From: an uncultured Trueperaceae bacterium
GTDB taxonomy: Bacteria > Deinococcota > Deinococci > Deinococcales > Trueperaceae
DNA length: 64,000 nucleotides
Direction of reading: 5' to 3'
Assembly (NCBI GenBank): GCA_963799485.1
Contig: CAWCXJ010000005.1
Location: forward strand, 96,001 to 160,000
The position numbers and the translations under genes are program-made. Under the pieces are notes generated by a model. It had not been told where the DNA came from. It saw nothing but the letters and a program-made list of their open reading frames with translations, and did not search any database. Below are positions 55,832 through 64,000 of the stretch, one piece after another (the stretch's first letter is position 1; every line of letters begins with the position of its first letter).

Positions 55832-56296
55832 TCAGGCGGCGGCAGGCTCCGCGCCTACCCCTTTATTATGCGCGGCACGCGCAGAACGCGCAACCCCTAT
55901 GAGGAAAACAGTGATGAGCGTAAACGCGGTGAGCGCAAGCAACGAAATGGTGATGAAGCCGCGCCAGTTGATGTATTCCTGAGAGCAGGGAACACCTGCG
56001 CGGCAGATACTCGGGGGGCGAAACCCCGGTACTTTTTGCTCGAGGTAGTAAAACGTCGAAACACCCATACCCGAGATTGAGAGCGGCAACGCGTAACCGA
56101 CGATGCTGCGGTCTTGGCGGCACGAGGCGATCCCCCAAAAAATTACGCGTGGGTACATCAGAATGCGCTGATAACAGCAGAGCGTACACGGAACAAAGAG
56201 CCGCGCCTCGCTAAAATACAAACTTCCGGCAGTTGCGACGATGGCAAGCAGCCACGCCGCGTAAAGTCCAAACCCGTGAAAAAAGCTAGTTGGCCT
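55832..56296 (-). pseudogene. Decaying DsbB/BdbC-type disulfide oxidoreductase
   Basis: In-frame LYAAWLLAIVATAGSLYFSE..PCTLCCYQRILMYP..C..VPC..YINW.GFITI; probable start codon reads AGG at 56296; several disruptive-looking substitutions. Confidence 0.75.
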
Positions 56297-56637: not shown

Positions 56638-57010
56638 CGGTGCACGTTACGGTTCACGTGGTTTTTACGGGATTTTCCCGCGCTACTGACGCTTCTATCT
56701 CCAGGTAAAGTGCCACAGGTCAAGCGTAAAACCGCAAACGGACGCCTTCAGCTGATACGGAAAGCTGTGCAGCACGTCCTTTCCCGAATCGGTACAACAG
56801 GGTTTTACAGACCGTTTTACCCCGCAAAAAGGTTTGTGTAGAGGCTCGAGCGTACCGGGTGTGACCGGCATTTCGCCAACCGAGGTGGTTTTGCTTGAAA
56901 TGTAAGCTAGGGCGCTAGACAGCTAAAAAAGGCGGGCGTAGCGTACCGGGGGGTAAAGGCTCGGGACTAGGGGCCGACTACGCTCAAAAACCTGATTCTG
57001 AGGGGGGATT

Positions 57011-57853
57011 ATGGAATTTGCAGGTGGGTTCGTTCCGGTTGCAGGTCAAGTCGGGTTGTTGTCGATGGTGGCCTACTACTGCATCTTCGCGGCGGTGTTC
57101 GCCTTGGGCGCGGCCTTTGTGTTCTTTCTGGCGGCTGAAAAGCGCGTTGCCCCTGAACACCGTTCGGAAATGATCTTATCCGCGCTTATCGTCGGGGTGG
57201 CAGCGGTTTCGTACTACCTGATACGTGGTTTTTTCCAAGACGCGCTGCGCAGTGTCGCCAACGCGCAAGACCCGGCGGCGCAGCGACGGCTTATCCAGAA
57301 CGCGTACCTCGCTGTCGGTCAGTACCGCTACGTAGACTGGCTGATCACGACGCCGCTACTTTTGCTTAAAACCGTCTTGGTTTTAGAGGCCAAACCGCGC
57401 AAACTGTGGGGGGCGCTGACGATCTTGCTCCTCGCCGACGTGTTTATGGTCGTTACCGGTTACATCGGTGAGCAGCAGTTCTCCGCCAACGGTAGCGTAG
57501 ACGTTCAGGGACGACTCTTCTGGGGTTTTATCGCGACGATCGGCTACGTCATCATCCCCATCACCCTGCTCTACATCTACCGGCGGTTCAAAGCGGGCGC
57601 GCATCCTTGGGAGCGCCGGGCGTTTAAGATTTTGGCGTTTGCGACCGTTACGACCTGGGGCGTTTACCCGCTCGGCTACCTCGTCCCGGCGCTCTGGCCG
57701 CAACTGTCTTACAACTGGATCAACATCGTGTTTAGTATCGCAGATGTGCTTAACAAAGTTGGCGCAGGCGTCGTAATCTATATCGGCGCAGCGAGGGTTC
57801 TAGAAGACCGGGTACCCAAAGACGCGACCCGGCAGGCTCGAGAGGTCGCCTAA
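57011..57853 (+). CDS. Microbial (type-1) rhodopsin, DTK motif
   Basis: Seven hydrophobic helices; helix C RYVDWLITTPLLLLK, helix F WGVYPLGY, helix G ADVLNK with the retinal-binding Lys249. Confidence 0.95.
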   Translation: MEFAGGFVPVAGQVGLLSMVAYYCIFAAVFALGAAFVFFLAAEKRVAPEHRSEMILSALIVGVAAVSYYLIRGFFQDALRSVANAQDPAAQRRLIQNAYLAVGQYRYVDWLITTPLLLLKTVLVLEAKPRKLWGALTILLLADVFMVVTGYIGEQQFSANGSVDVQGRLFWGFIATIGYVIIPITLLYIYRRFKAGAHPWERRAFKILAFATVTTWGVYPLGYLVPALWPQLSYNWINIVFSIADVLNKVGAGVVIYIGAARVLEDRVPKDATRQAREVA

Positions 57854-57975
57854 AAAGCCTACGGTCTCCTGCTTGCTGTGGATTAAGTTTCAGTAGAAGT
57901 CCCAAACCGGTGTGCAGAGATTATCGCAGACAAAACCCGCAGTACGTACGACTGCGGGTTTTGTCTGCCGCTTTT

Positions 57976-58790: not shown

Positions 58791-59141
58791 TCATGGTTCA
58801 TCCTCAGCGCTCAGCTGCGCGCCGCACGCGTCCCACTCGTCGGCGCTGCCCGCTTCACGGTAAAAGGGCAACCCCCGCAGATAGCCCGAGCGGGCGATCA
58901 TATAGGCTGACAGCGGCGCGGTCAAAAAGAAAAAAGCAGTGATGAGGACGATTCTCGAGACCGCCAGTGGCGTCCCGAAACGGAGCGCCGCCGCGATAAA
59001 AATCCCTATCCCGCCGAGTGTAACGAGCTTGGTCGAGGCGTGCAACCGGGTGTAAAAGTCGGGAAAACGGAACACACCGATAGCGGCTGCCAAGATAAAA
59101 AAGCTGCCGAAGAGCAAGAACAGGTCGCTGACGAGCTTCAT
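58791..59141 (-). CDS. mnhG: Mrp Na+/H+ antiporter subunit G
   Basis: RFPDFYTRLHASTK, LTAP. Confidence 0.92.
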   Translation of the reverse strand: MKLVSDLFLLFGSFFILAAAIGVFRFPDFYTRLHASTKLVTLGGIGIFIAAALRFGTPLAVSRIVLITAFFFLTAPLSAYMIARSGYLRGLPFYREAGSADEWDACGAQLSAEDEP

Positions 59142-59395
59142 TTGAGTACCTGGCGTAAAAGCAAATAACGGGTCAGCGCCACCGTTGTCAAAAAACCCAG
59201 GATCGACACGAGCAGCGCTACGTCGAGAAAGCTCTCGAACCCGGTGCGAATAGCCAAAACGACGATCAGAACGGCCAGGTTGACGGTTAAAAAATCGAAG
59301 GCGGTAACGCGGTCGCCCCACGACGGCCCCCGGACGACACGGTAGACGGCGAGTGCCACGGCAATAAGAAGACAGACAAGTGCGACGGTGGTCAT
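59138..59395 (-). CDS. mnhF: Mrp Na+/H+ antiporter subunit F
   Basis: RGPSWGDRVTAFD, GFLTTVA. Confidence 0.92.
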   Translation of the reverse strand: MTTVALVCLLIAVALAVYRVVRGPSWGDRVTAFDFLTVNLAVLIVVLAIRTGFESFLDVALLVSILGFLTTVALTRYLLLRQVLK

Positions 59396-59408
59396 CTAGC
59401 TTCCCTTC

Positions 59409-59873
59409 TCACTTCATAAACCCCAAAATGCGTGTTTCCATCTTTGTCACGCTCTCCCGCGCCTCGTCTACGTCCTTGATGTTGATGGCGTGGGCGTAGA
59501 GCAGCTTGCGGTCGGCCGAGACGCCCATCGCTACCGTTCCCGGCAAAAGCGTGATGGTCGCGCTCAGGAGCGAAATCGCGGCGTCGCTACGCAACCTGAG
59601 CGGTACGGCGATGATGTGCGGATAAAAGACCGGACGGCGGCGCAGTGCGAGGAGCGCAATCAGGATATTTGCCAGCAGCAGCTCCCAGAAAAACGCGCCC
59701 AGATAACGGATAAACGCCCCCAAACGACGCGCAAACGACTCGCCGCCGCCCCGCAACACACTCAACAAAAGTGCCGCCAGCAGGCCACCGACGATTAAAT
59801 TATAGGCGGTCAGCTCACCGACCAGAATAGGCCACAAAAGTGCAAAGAGAAACAAGATGAAGACTTGACTCAC
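59409..59873 (-). CDS. mnhE: Mrp Na+/H+ antiporter subunit E
   Basis: ELLLANI, ITLLPGT, LYAH. Confidence 0.9.
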   Translation of the reverse strand: MSQVFILFLFALLWPILVGELTAYNLIVGGLLAALLLSVLRGGGESFARRLGAFIRYLGAFFWELLLANILIALLALRRRPVFYPHIIAVPLRLRSDAAISLLSATITLLPGTVAMGVSADRKLLYAHAINIKDVDEARESVTKMETRILGFMK

Positions 59874-61417
59874 GGCACCCGCTCCGGTGCTGTCTCCTGT
59901 GCTGCTTTTACTGTTTCTTGCGGCAGAACCCTCGAGATATAAGCCTCAGGCGTTCTCAGCTGCGCCGCAACCCGCTCGGAAAGCGCGTAAACCGGGCCAC
60001 TCGCCACAGCGAGCAGTACGAGCAGCGAACCCGCGACCGCCGTAATCCGCCACATTCCTGTGGGCAACGCGACTTTATGAACGGCGTCCTCGTCCCCCCA
60101 GAAAAAGCCGCGCCAGACGGCGATACCGGCGTAAAGGAGGAGTAACCCGGCGGCAACGGCGACCGTTGCCACGCCGATGCGGAGTGCGCCGCCGGTTTCT
60201 AAAAGCGCCTGAATCAGGGCGAACTTGCCGATAAACCCGCTTGTCGGCGGGAGGCCGGCAAGGGCCAACGCCGCGACAAAATAGACCGCCCCTAAGAGCG
60301 GGTACGCGCCCAGGTGCCCCTCGGTGTGGTCGCCGAAGCGTTCCCCGGCGATGAGTTCAGCAAGTCCGGCGAGCAAAAAGAGGGTAAAAATCACCAGCAC
60401 CGAATGGACGAGGTAGTAGAGCGTCGGGGCCAGTGCGCCGCTCCCGATCCCCATCACCAGATACCCGACCGAGGCGATGTTGGCAAACGCCAGCAGGTGC
60501 CGCCAGCGGCGCTGCGCCACCGCGCCGAGCGCGCCGAACAAGATGGTCAGTCCGGCGAGCAGCAGGAGCGTGTTGCGTAAACCCGTCTCTGCGGGTGTCA
60601 GCAGCGTAAAAAGCCGCAAAAGCGCGTAAACCCCGACTTTGGTCAGCATGGCCCCGAAAAACGCCCCGACTGCACCCGGTACCACCGGGTAGCTGTACGG
60701 CAACCAGAACCCGAACGGGAAGGTGGCAGCTTTGGTGGCGAAGACGAGCGCTAACAGGGCGGCGACGAGCGTCACGCGGGTGTCGCCGGTGACACCCTGC
60801 AAACGCAACGCGATATCGGCAAAATTGAGCGTGCCGAAAAGGCCGTAGGCCAACCCCGCCGCGGCCACGAAGATGGCCGAGGCCACGAGGTTGACGACCA
60901 CGTACTTAAAGCCTTCGCGGAGTTGCGGCAAGGTGCCGCCGATCAGCAGCAGGCCATACGAGGCGATGAGCATCACCTCGAACGAGACGAACAGGTTAAA
61001 GAGGTCGCCGGTTAGAAACGACATGTTGACGCCCATAAACAAAAATTGTAACAGGGCCAGGGTGCCCAGCTTTTCGCGGAGGCCGTTAAGCAGCGGCGAC
61101 GCACCCCGGCGCGGCGCGCGCTTTAGGCTCGAGCCCGCATAAACTGTACTTAAAAGCCCGGTCACCCCCGAAAGCAGCAGCATAATCCCGGTGAGACCGT
61201 CGGCAACCAGGGTAATCCCGTAAGGCGCGGGCCAGCCGCCGAGCTGCGTGACGAGAATCTCACCGGAGAAGCTGAGAACGGCGAGCCAAAGAGACGCGAG
61301 CAGCGTCAGTAACGAGACGATAGCTGAAGCTAAGGCCCTAGCCTGCGGCGTCCTGAGCAGGAGCAGCAGTGCACCCCCGAAAAGGGGCAGCAGTACGGGT
61401 AGCGTCAGGGCGATCAT
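59870..61417 (-). CDS. mnhD: Mrp Na+/H+ antiporter subunit D
   Basis: GGWPAPYGITLVAD, TGDLFNLFVSFEVMLIASY, LTKVGVYA. Confidence 0.94.
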   Translation of the reverse strand: MIALTLPVLLPLFGGALLLLLRTPQARALASAIVSLLTLLASLWLAVLSFSGEILVTQLGGWPAPYGITLVADGLTGIMLLLSGVTGLLSTVYAGSSLKRAPRRGASPLLNGLREKLGTLALLQFLFMGVNMSFLTGDLFNLFVSFEVMLIASYGLLLIGGTLPQLREGFKYVVVNLVASAIFVAAAGLAYGLFGTLNFADIALRLQGVTGDTRVTLVAALLALVFATKAATFPFGFWLPYSYPVVPGAVGAFFGAMLTKVGVYALLRLFTLLTPAETGLRNTLLLLAGLTILFGALGAVAQRRWRHLLAFANIASVGYLVMGIGSGALAPTLYYLVHSVLVIFTLFLLAGLAELIAGERFGDHTEGHLGAYPLLGAVYFVAALALAGLPPTSGFIGKFALIQALLETGGALRIGVATVAVAAGLLLLYAGIAVWRGFFWGDEDAVHKVALPTGMWRITAVAGSLLVLLAVASGPVYALSERVAAQLRTPEAYISRVLPQETVKAAQETAPERVP

Positions 61418-61438
61418 AACGGTATTTTCATAATATTT

Positions 61439-61855
61439 TCATGCGCGTGAGTGCCGCGCGCCCTGAGTTTCCGGCGAGACCGACGGGTGTTCGGGATCGG
61501 CGTAAATACGTTGCGGCGTCGCCGGGTCGGGTTTTTCTAAAAGCTCTTGTACGTGGTCGGTACCGGTCGCCTGAAACGCGCGCATGGCGAGCACCAAAAG
61601 GAGGGAGGTGGTACCGAACCCAATGACGATGGCGGTCAGGATGAGCGCTTGCGGGAGCGGATCGACGTAGGGGCCTTTGAGATTTGTCAGCGGCGGGTCG
61701 CTGAGTCTGCCGCCGGCAACCAGCAAGATCGACAAGTTTGCACCGTAGGCGATCATCGACAACCCGATGATCAGGCGGATCATCGCCCGTGACAAGACCA
61801 GGAACACGCCGGTACCAACCAAAAGTGCTGCGAGTAGCGGCAAAAGCAGCTCCAT
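61439..61855 (-). CDS. mnhC: Mrp Na+/H+ antiporter subunit C
   Basis: DPLPQALILTAIVIGFG. Confidence 0.94.
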   Translation of the reverse strand: MELLLPLLAALLVGTGVFLVLSRAMIRLIIGLSMIAYGANLSILLVAGGRLSDPPLTNLKGPYVDPLPQALILTAIVIGFGTTSLLLVLAMRAFQATGTDHVQELLEKPDPATPQRIYADPEHPSVSPETQGARHSRA

Positions 61856-62328
61856 CAGTCCTCCTGCGCGTCGAGCGGCGCGAGCGTCGTATCGGTATCT
61901 TCGGCTAAAAGTTCGATGATGGTCAAAGTCGTGCCGACCACGACCAAAAAGACCCCGGCGTCAAAGAGCACCGCCGTCGCCCACTCGAACTCACCGATCA
62001 GCGGCCACGTCAGGTAGCCGTAAGCGGACTTCAAAAAGGCTTGTCCGAAGACGAGCGGCACGACGCCGGTGAGGAGCGCTAGCAGCAGCCCCCACGGTAA
62101 GAGGCGTTGCGGCGGCAGGTTCAAAAAGGGCCGGTCGAACACGATTCGCGACAAAAGCGCGGCGACCGCGACGATGAGCCCGGCGATAAACCCGCCCCCC
62201 GGCGCGTTGTGACCCCGCCAAAAGAGGTAAAAGCCTAGAAAAACCAGCACGAACACGACAGGTCGAGCGAAGGTTTGAAAAAACAGCTCGAGCCCGCGTT
62301 TATCGTGTTTATCAGTCATGTTCATCAC
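61855..62328 (-). CDS. mnhB: Mrp Na+/H+ antiporter subunit B
   Basis: GHNAPGGGFIAGL, FDAGVFLVVVG. Confidence 0.94.
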   Translation of the reverse strand: MMNMTDKHDKRGLELFFQTFARPVVFVLVFLGFYLFWRGHNAPGGGFIAGLIVAVAALLSRIVFDRPFLNLPPQRLLPWGLLLALLTGVVPLVFGQAFLKSAYGYLTWPLIGEFEWATAVLFDAGVFLVVVGTTLTIIELLAEDTDTTLAPLDAQED

Positions 62329-64000
62329 GTTCCTTTTCAGACACCGTTTTAACCTTGAGCAGCGCGTAGACGCTCACCCCGACAATCGCCAGCACGGTAA
62401 TCTCGCCGAGTGTGTCGTAACCTCTAAAATCGACTAGAATCACGTTGACGACGTTGTAACCGCCGGCTCCCGCTTTGCTCTCGGTAAGAAAAAACCGCTG
62501 TAACCGTTCGCCGATAGGCGTCTGCACTGCTAACAGCGCCCCAAAGACCGTCAAACCGACTGCGCCGGAAAGCGCAGCGTCGAAAAAAGAAGCGCGCCGC
62601 GAGCGGCGGTAACGGGTCAGTCTGGGCAGGTAGCGAAACACCGAGACGAACAAGATGACGGTCACGGTTTCGATTAGCAGCTGCGTCAGGGCGAGGTCGG
62701 GGGCGCGGAGTGCGACGAACAGCAAAACAAGCGACAACCCGGCCAAACCGGAAAAAATCAGCGCTGAAACCCGCGCCTGGGCAATGATGACGCCGTAGGT
62801 GCTACCCGCGACCAATAAGGCAGCGGCGAGAAACTCGAGCGGTACCGGGCTCAGGTTTTGCGGCAAATACGCGCCTAGACCGACAAAGGCAAACCCCACC
62901 CCGAGCAGCGCGACCGGCAGCCACAACACCCGCAGTTGTGCGGCGAAGGTGGCGTTTTGGGTTCTGGCGGTGGCAAAACGGGCGGTGCGCTCGAGGCCGC
63001 CCATCAGCGCGTAATATACCGTGTTGGCGTTCCACGAGGGTGTCAACACCTCTTGCAGTCGACCGAACGGACCTATGAGCGCAAAAAGCACGATCCCGGC
63101 TCCCCACGTCCAGAACGACAAGATGAGCATCGGATTAAAACCGTGCCAGAGATAGAGCGCTTCGGGTTCGAACCCGAGTGCCGGCGCCGCAAGCGCCACA
63201 ACCGGCGTCGCCAAAGTTGCCTGCCACGGAAAAACGCCGAAAAGCACGACGAGGACGCTCAGCAGCGCAGGTGGTAAGAGCATCCACAGGGGCGCTTCGT
63301 GCACGTTGGGGCGGTGACAGCGGTACGGCCCGACGAATACCCTTAAAAACTTGAGGCTGTACGCAAAAGTCATCACACTGCCGACGACCGCGAGCGCAAT
63401 CGGCAACGTCCCGCTACGCAGCATCTCCTCATAAAACAGCTCTTTGGAGATAAAGCCGCCGAACGGAGGCAGGCCCGCCATCGACAGCGCTGCCGGAACT
63501 GCAATCAGAAACGTCCAGGGTAGTTTGCGGGCAAGCCCCGACAGTTCACGGATGCTGCGGCTGCCCGTTTCGTGGTCGATGCTGCCGACGACCAGAAAGA
63601 GCGCCGCCTTAAACGTGGCGTGGTTTATCAGCTGCGCGGTCGCCGCAAGCGGATAGCCCGCGCCGTAAAGCGCTGTTAAAAGCCCGAGCTGTGAAACCGT
63701 CGAATAAGCCAAAAGTGCCTTGAGGTCGTCTTGTTTAAGCGCCAGATACGAGCCCCAGACCATCGTCACGAGCCCCAGGTAGAGCAGCCCGTCCGACCAT
63801 GCGCTCAGCACGAACAGCGGCGCGAACTTGGCTAAGAGGACGATACCGGCTTTGACCATCGTCGCCGAGTGCAGGTACGCCGAGATCGGCGTGGGCGCTT
63901 CCATGGCAGTCGGCAGCCAGATATAAAAGGGAAACTGCGCCGATTTGGTCAGTGCGGCAAAGAGCAAGAGCGCGAGCGCCGGGACAAACGACGAACTCTG
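62312..64000 (-). CDS. mnhA: Mrp Na+/H+ antiporter subunit A, 5' end beyond the window
   Basis: KSAQFPFYIWLPTAMEAPTPISAYLHSATMVKAG, APDLALTQ, NVILVDFRGYDTLGE. Confidence 0.95.
   Translation of the reverse strand, partial: QSSSFVPALALLLFAALTKSAQFPFYIWLPTAMEAPTPISAYLHSATMVKAGIVLLAKFAPLFVLSAWSDGLLYLGLVTMVWGSYLALKQDDLKALLAYSTVSQLGLLTALYGAGYPLAATAQLINHATFKAALFLVVGSIDHETGSRSIRELSGLARKLPWTFLIAVPAALSMAGLPPFGGFISKELFYEEMLRSGTLPIALAVVGSVMTFAYSLKFLRVFVGPYRCHRPNVHEAPLWMLLPPALLSVLVVLFGVFPWQATLATPVVALAAPALGFEPEALYLWHGFNPMLILSFWTWGAGIVLFALIGPFGRLQEVLTPSWNANTVYYALMGGLERTARFATARTQNATFAAQLRVLWLPVALLGVGFAFVGLGAYLPQNLSPVPLEFLAAALLVAGSTYGVIIAQARVSALIFSGLAGLSLVLLFVALRAPDLALTQLLIETVTVILFVSVFRYLPRLTRYRRSRRASFFDAALSGAVGLTVFGALLAVQTPIGERLQRFFLTESKAGAGGYNVVNVILVDFRGYDTLGEITVLAIVGVSVYALLKVKTVSEKERDEHD

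Follow-up and report, generated by a model that had tools for sequence, protein, structure and literature searches.

What is the function of a rhodopsin that carries a lysine at the proton-donor site and lacks the helix-B histidine, and where would its host obtain the retinal and any antenna carotenoid to go with it? The question is raised by a gene in the window, the whole stretch of 64,000 nucleotides analysed here, whose host genome is Truepera-like. The gene is a full-length frame, and its product matches the Pfam profile PF01036 with 114 bits against a cut-off of 24.6. It lies among the following features:

57011..57853, + strand: type-1 microbial rhodopsin gene, 280 aa, 'NewDTK' clade (ORF, Pfam, model, tree and divergence)
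56916..56944, + strand: candidate sigma-70-type promoter, TAGACA, 17 nt, TAGCGT (found by eye)
57000..57007, + strand: purine-rich ribosome-binding site, kept in both nearest orthologues
57926..57968, no strand assigned: hairpin of 18 pairs, a likely terminator, where the rhodopsin gene and the CRP-family gene converge

The rhodopsin gene stands alone, with a divergent copZ-like gene on one side and the convergent CRP-family gene on the other, and no blh or crt genes adjoin it, as the initial annotation had stated. The candidate promoter falls below the threshold of a consensus promoter scan; its -35 hexamer and spacing are the same in both nearest orthologues, despite different flanking genes. 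Third-position differences dominate the comparison with these two orthologues (116 versus 31 and 17, and 107 versus 31 and 18), so that divergence is mostly synonymous and the gene is under purifying selection. A second assembly holds a copy (P0300) that is identical at 279 of 280 residues and has the same private residues (see below), although it may derive from the same material. No tblastn match to the gene was found in the plasmid collection, and the ESM Atlas returned generic rhodopsin clusters only. Among sequencing runs, none of RNA was listed with the gene, and three runs contained 10% or less of the sequence words.

An Mrp-type cation/H+ antiporter operon occupies positions 58791-64000 of the window (− strand), about 1 kb downstream of the rhodopsin gene. 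CRP-family, CopZ and Mrp neighbours were not seen beside the four nearest orthologue loci. A functional link between the rhodopsin and any of the three was rejected for this reason, and the proximity of the Mrp operon is probably incidental. The CRP-family neighbour matches the LdrP model weakly (37 bits against a cut-off of 300). A disulfide oxidoreductase-like ORF at 55832-56221 (− strand) reaches 119 bits against the NF002849 cut-off of 124 and lacks the first 25 model positions; its start is uncertain or the ORF is truncated.

Residues were mapped through HMMER alignments to Exiguobacterium sibiricum rhodopsin (ESR; 4HYJ), xanthorhodopsin (XR; 3DDL) and HeimdallR1 (9JTQ), with bacteriorhodopsin (BR) positions taken via ESR numbering. 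Conservation was counted in the 120 best homologues of 443 matches, the query included. The key positions are:

57335..57370, + strand: helix C motif D109-T113-K120 (acceptor, partner and donor-site lysine), from alignments and conservation
57209..57211, + strand: S67, the helix-B His site, aligned with ESR H57 and XR H62
57743..57757, + strand: D245 and Schiff-base K249, aligned with the helix-G Asp and Schiff-base Lys
57524..57538, + strand: fenestration positions G172 (XR G156) to T176 (XR T160), from alignments and conservation
57167..57169, + strand: E53, at the ESR T43 site tuning the donor lysine, from alignment to ESR
57722..57724, + strand: N238, at the ESR E214 site, from alignment to ESR
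57218..57319, + strand: long B-C segment, residues 70-103, a predicted extracellular helical hairpin with a family-wide conserved pattern, from alignment and model

Judged by its sequence, the protein is a type-1 microbial rhodopsin with the seven-helix fold and the helix-G Schiff-base lysine, and retinal binding is predicted. D109, T113 and K120 align with ESR D85, T89 and K96 and with XR D96, T100 and E107, and lysine is found at position 120 in 116 of the 120 best homologues. K249 is present in all 120, as is D143, which aligns with the Asp of ESR and HeimdallR1 at the BR115 site. Serine at position 67 is kept in 117/120 and histidine occurs there in none (0/120), while G172, aligned with XR G156 and HeimdallR1 G141, is glycine in 120/120. 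The alignments to solved structures thus uphold the initial annotation, which had placed D109/T113/K120 at the BR 85/89/96 sites, assigned D245/K249 and D143, and read serine at the helix-B His site and glycine at XR156. Y223 corresponds to the Tyr at XR207 (116/120). Three positions depart from the family norm: A175, at the XR S159 site, is private to the window protein (1/120), E53 (1/120) stands where the family mostly has Ser, and N238 occupies a site that is His in 113/120. The window protein therefore has neither histidine, with Ser at the helix-B site and Asn at 238.

The same annotation had described the stretch between helices B and C as an amphipathic loop of about 30 amino acids. 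The segment is indeed long (Y68 to R106, 38 residues; XR-like rows have about 30 and ESR/PR-like rows mostly 18-24), but it is predicted as a helical hairpin rather than a loop, and its amphipathicity is significant only in the first arm (shuffle p=0.01 for residues 70-85; p=0.38 for 88-103). An AlphaFold2 model built from a 118-row alignment gives a confident seven-helix fold (mean pLDDT 91.6), in which the hairpin prolongs helices B and C (helices 48-84 and 88-123, pLDDT 89-97). The closest folds are proton pumps, namely ESR (Z 27.9, rmsd 1.7 Å over 222 residues) and psXR, tied at 27.9.

A label for proteins of this kind already exists. In PMC7979833 (Inoue et al. 2021, Supplementary Data 4), 12 rows are grouped as 'NewDTK'; they come from Hymenobacter, Spirosoma and Deinococcus pimensis, and none is from the Truepera genus. 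The base wavelength, which in that paper is that of a measured representative, is entered as NA, and so no 'NewDTK' representative had been measured at that time (PMC7979833). 'NewDTK' is a table label only, and three DTQ rows there look unrelated (PMC7979833). Over 24 retinal-neighbour residues, two of the homologues (P0088 and P0108) agree at 24/24 with the table's Hymenobacter and Deinococcus/Spirosoma rows, and the window protein agrees with the P0088-type row at 23/24. The identity of these 24 positions was presumed by us beforehand, and the exact matches of P0088 and P0108 bore it out. By these comparisons the window protein is placed in the 'NewDTK' group, an assignment that rests on the retinal-neighbour match and on same-genus homologues. 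Genera, motif and retinal pocket are shared, and A175, E53 and N238 are the window protein's own additions. In the literature searched, where subscription papers lay mostly outside the coverage, no study of the 'NewDTK' clade was found, and the main texts do not use the term. The clade is not described in the available text of 10.1101/2022.08.01.502354, PMC3595038, 10.1101/2020.08.06.239558 or PMC10154332. The family table of PMC12137139 holds eight DTK rows, all ACB, ESR or HeimdallR, and the characterised DTK pumps in its supplement all retain the helix-B His.

The homologue search returned 443 matches among 7571 candidates, and the best 120 are all at least 44% identical to the window protein. 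Hosts named among the best 120 include Hymenobacter, Mucilaginibacter, Spirosoma, Acetobacteraceae-like MAGs and Deinococcus, and the presence of Hymenobacter and Spirosoma agrees with the soil Cytophagales relatives that had been suggested before. This lysine-donor rhodopsin clade is widespread in soil-type bacteria of several phyla. In two trees of hand-picked subsets the family forms one strongly supported clade (100 SH-aLRT with 83 rows, 99/99 with 35 rows); 19 partial, truncated or duplicate rows were left out before the FastTree run. Its branch is separate from the ESR-like proxy, the HeimdallR proxy and XR/NQ, the deep relationships being poorly resolved. ESR is represented by P0148 (E 1.8e-56 to ESR), which lies outside the 100-supported family branch, and the HeimdallR proxy P0138 (E 1.6e-89 to 9JTQ), also outside, is at most a weakly supported cousin (89, unstarred). 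The separate, poorly characterised DTK class that the initial annotation had proposed is thus recovered as a clade of its own.

Just outside the family clade lies P0124, a His-retaining relative with a long B-C segment, and L084 is similar. Both proteins (P0124 and L084:2271-3032) have the helix-B His, His at 238, DTK and Gly156, and they possibly represent an intermediate; in L084 the rhodopsin gene is followed by those for a lycopene cyclase and Blh. Other His-less DTK lineages are present among the 50%-identity representatives, and so loss of the helix-B His is not unique at the sequence level. A second His-less DTK group (L090-L094, P0136, P0152, P0139) has Gly156 and a short B-C segment; loci L090-L094 are 34-37% identical, and blh follows in L094. 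Lysine-less offshoots with at least two origins are nested inside the family; the long B-C segment is retained in them, and in most the helix-E Gly as well. These are the opsins P0125, P0126, P0130, P0133, P0135, P0144, P0147 and P0151, in which both the Schiff-base Lys and the acceptor Asp are missing. None of the six Deinococcaceae orthologues has the donor Lys (L015-L020; five DTA, one DTG), and two of them have internal stops. One family member in 120 (P0066, 446 aa) has a C-terminal pair of ACT domains, which may be read-through or a true fusion, and the pairs P0070/P0083, P0068/P0080 and P0023/P0057, each sharing either an organism or the length of the longest contig, suggest two family copies per genome.

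The host genome encodes three rhodopsins: the DTK protein of the window, an NDQ protein whose closest structures are those of sodium pumps and other NQ proteins, and a TSV protein (L006:6850-7545, G000:C6) nearest to cyanobacterial halorhodopsins. It has no DTE pump. Within the order, 10 of 301 genomes carry an orthologue of the DTK gene, and within the genus three of six do; the nearest orthologue, 89% identical, is in a genome of the same genus (G160). The lateral acquisition put forward in the initial annotation, if recent, was rejected, as the gene is typical of its host in GC3 and codon use (42nd and 46th percentile) and the Trueperaceae and Deinococcaceae copies form deep branches of their own outside the Bacteroidota group in the 35-row tree. 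The TSV gene, at the 5th percentile for both GC3 and codon adaptation, is a better candidate for recent transfer. The pattern agrees with a gene that has long been resident, has been lost in a patchy manner and has been rearranged locally. The spread of the family over phyla implies old transfers, the direction of which is not given by these data.

A proton pump, as proposed in the initial annotation, is still the best reading of the sequence, and the window protein is probably a green-absorbing, light-driven outward pump of the 'NewDTK' clade. Acceptor D109, donor K120 and Schiff-base K249 are intact, and the transport-critical residues are conserved in the best homologues. The characterised DTK proteins ESR, ACB-G35 and HeimdallR1-3 are all outward H+ pumps in the available text of PMC12137139 and PMC7148096, the latter reporting outward H+ transport for a Heimdall DTK protein. 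Transducer families are not among the neighbours that recur in at least three family loci (38 loci). As the other rhodopsins of the host are NDQ and TSV, with no DTE pump, the DTK gene would fill the proton-pump slot. For 'NewDTK' rows whose pocket is nearly identical, a model puts the predicted absorption maximum near 542 nm (PMC7979833 supplement).

In the proposed mechanism, light would isomerise retinal and the Schiff-base proton would pass to D109; K120 would take up a cytoplasmic proton only transiently and reprotonate the Schiff base, as in ESR. In the latter, the pKa of Asp85 climbs from 2.3 to 6.3 once His57 is lost, that of Lys96 is raised by Thr43, and a His57-water-Glu214 chain has been proposed as an exit path (available text of PMC11155677). 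Lacking the His-Asp pair, D109 may have a higher pKa, with pumping best at neutral to alkaline pH. Ser at the helix-B site together with a 238 site that is mostly His suggests a relocated release-side histidine in the family, and the His that most members carry in place of ESR E214 would act in proton release. Asn238 and the private Glu53 beside K120 may give the window protein different kinetics. A carotenoid antenna in the G172 opening, provided by the host's predicted 4-keto carotenoid glycoside ester, would be an optional extra.

Some evidence stands against a plain pump. A DTE pump is also present in hosts G292, G037, Hymenobacter coccineus and PAMC 26628, which suggests a different role or regime. 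The loss of the donor Lys in Deinococcaceae, the nested lysine-less offshoots, the helix-B His shared by the characterised DTK pumps and the lack of a Blh match in three orthologue-bearing genomes (see below) also count against it. The protein could instead be a retinal-binding slow photosensor or regulator, signalling via the extracellular helical hairpin or mixed oligomers with little net transport, and the DTE pumps in the same hosts and the relaxed donor site would suit this. So would the fusion of P0066 to ACT domains and the nested lysine-less offshoots, whose retained B-C segment suggests a scaffold role without retinal. However, the fusion is a single case in 120 that may be read-through, the acceptor, donor and Schiff-base residues are intact, and a recurrent transducer or two-component neighbour was not seen in 38 loci; we consider a sensor quite unlikely.

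Loss of the His-Asp pair might instead let the protein transport another ion or restrict its activity to a small span of pH, as in a pump that tolerates Na+/Li+ or is acid-active. This is very unlikely given that D109/T113 is a proton-pump pattern and not NDQ or NTQ, and that the host already has NDQ and TSV pumps. Nevertheless, both Na+ and Cl− pumps are found in His-less branches close to the PR/XR group, some DTG/DTS pumps are active in acid, and one DTG protein has been claimed to pump Li+/Na+ (available text of PMC10154332). The Mrp operon about 1 kb away could be read in the same direction, but was not seen beside the nearest orthologues. It is highly improbable that the gene is silent or decaying in its Truepera-like host: its frame is full-length, its divergence is biased to synonymous sites, and the promoter-like block and ribosome-binding site are conserved, all of which weighs against the three departures from the family norm (E53, A175, N238) and the two broken Deinococcaceae orthologues. 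The same private residues recur in the second assembly, which may be the same material. The proton pump remains our preferred reading.

The source of the retinal, which the initial annotation had left open, is likely the host's own unlinked Blh, which is full-length and scores 189 bits on TIGR03753 (cut-off 95). A CrtL-type lycopene cyclase, CrtB and CrtI are encoded as well. A genome search for blh or carotenoid oxygenases, as had been proposed, was therefore productive for blh; an RPE65-type carotenoid oxygenase (PF03055) had no match in the host genome and was rejected as the source. By neighbour clustering, blh adjoins 22 of 32 family loci, some of which are near-duplicates or cut by contig ends, and the eight of those 22 that were checked exceed the TIGR03753 cut-off. 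It adjoins none of the four Truepera-like loci and three of the six Deinococcaceae copies, one as a fragment. A tblastn search with the host Blh recovered it in only 4/47 loci (three Deinococcaceae and L094), and the counts are therefore taken from clustering and HMM checks. Blh was not found in three of the nine other orthologue-bearing genomes, namely G160 (the nearest), G148 and G278. In G160, which is 99% complete and has no Blh match, PF01036 is matched five times; these matches correspond to about four genes, of which one contains an internal stop and another is split in two.

Genes for carotenoid modification are clustered on C13 of the host genome. The cluster includes a CrtO-like protein, for which the best NCBIfam match is CrtO at 333 bits, below the cut-off of 1000, and which has 60-66% identical matches in all six Deinococcaceae genomes tested. 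A cyclase-domain/CruF fusion, an acyltransferase, a glycosyltransferase and a CrtD-like gene are also present. This gene content suggests that the host product is likely a monocyclic 4-keto carotenoid glycoside ester, which we take to be similar in plan to salinixanthin. The initial annotation had pointed to deinoxanthin, the 4-keto carotenoid of Deinococcus; the host is Truepera-like, not Deinococcus, and the predicted product is a keto-carotenoid glycoside.

Whether such a carotenoid acts as an antenna is doubtful, though possible. G172, T176 and Y223 match the XR pattern. By itself, a glycine at XR156 counts for little: the available text of PMC12137139 lists NQ pumps that have it but no antenna, psXR has the Gly and does not bind canthaxanthin (PMC12779958), and Kin4B8 binds salinixanthin without energy transfer (PMC13093654). 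The lysine-less offshoots mostly keep this Gly, which also speaks against reading it as a sign of an antenna. Somewhat unlikely is the wider picture of a widespread terrestrial family of proton pumps in which the histidine has been relocated from helix B to the exit site in helix G, an extracellular helical hairpin has been gained, and blue light is harvested via the red keto-carotenoid glycosides of the hosts. If true, it would be the first case of a lysine-donor pump that lacks the His and uses an endogenous antenna, and pigmented bacteria of soil and rock surfaces would have a route of phototrophy that has been overlooked.

The window gene itself is unremarkable beyond its three private substitutions, and the interest lies in the family as a whole. 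Studies of lysine-donor proton pumps are confined to three lineages (ESR, ACB and HeimdallR), all with the His-Asp pair, and the 'NewDTK' clade is a natural test of whether this counterion pair is needed. The clade is easy to test because it has cultured members in Hymenobacter, Spirosoma, Mucilaginibacter and Deinococcus, and frequent blh. If a host-made carotenoid is used, common heterotrophs on land would also be capable of rhodopsin phototrophy with an antenna.

Among known systems, HeimdallR is the best PDB match by sequence (E 1.4e-25, about 31% identity). HeimdallR1-3 (PDB 9JTQ) share with the window protein DTK, Gly at XR156, Asp at BR115 and Asn before the Schiff-base Lys. HeimdallRs are DTK proteins with an XR-like fenestration and are proven H+ pumps with hydroxylated carotenoid antennas (available text of PMC12137139). 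However, they have the helix-B His, a second fenestration Gly (G145, Thr176 in the window protein), a shorter B-C segment and marine archaeal hosts, and they form a separate clade. Despite the shared DTK and Gly156, S67, T176 and the tree position place the window protein outside the HeimdallRs.

ESR (PDB 4HYJ), tied as best structural match, shares the donor Lys, the D115-type Asp and an equivalent of E130 (E154), but is only about 30% identical. The window protein lacks His57, has Gly where ESR has Tyr at XR156, and carries Asn at the ESR E214 site, which is His in most of the family. Proteins of the ESR group carry two motifs, FPLLxG following the donor and LRE within helix G (available text of PMC10519204); neither is found in the window protein, be it in the residues that follow K120 or in those that precede D245. 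With D-T-K shared but no helix-B His and no FPLLxG or LRE, the protein is, by its motifs, not an ESR-family member. XR and Gloeobacter rhodopsin (3DDL, 6NWD) share the W-G-x-x-S/A-T pattern of helix E and the Tyr at XR207 (Y223). In contrast, the window protein is DTK and not DTE, has no helix-B His and hence no His-Asp pair, falls outside the XR/NQ clade and has, in place of the XR-type B-C segment, one predicted to be helical; on these sequence features it is not a member of the xanthorhodopsin family. The initial annotation had presented a DTK class with antenna potential as different and poorly characterised. The class had its label already, and the combination of DTK, fenestration and antenna is known from HeimdallRs; what is new here is a DTK clade without the helix-B His and with a predicted helical B-C hairpin.
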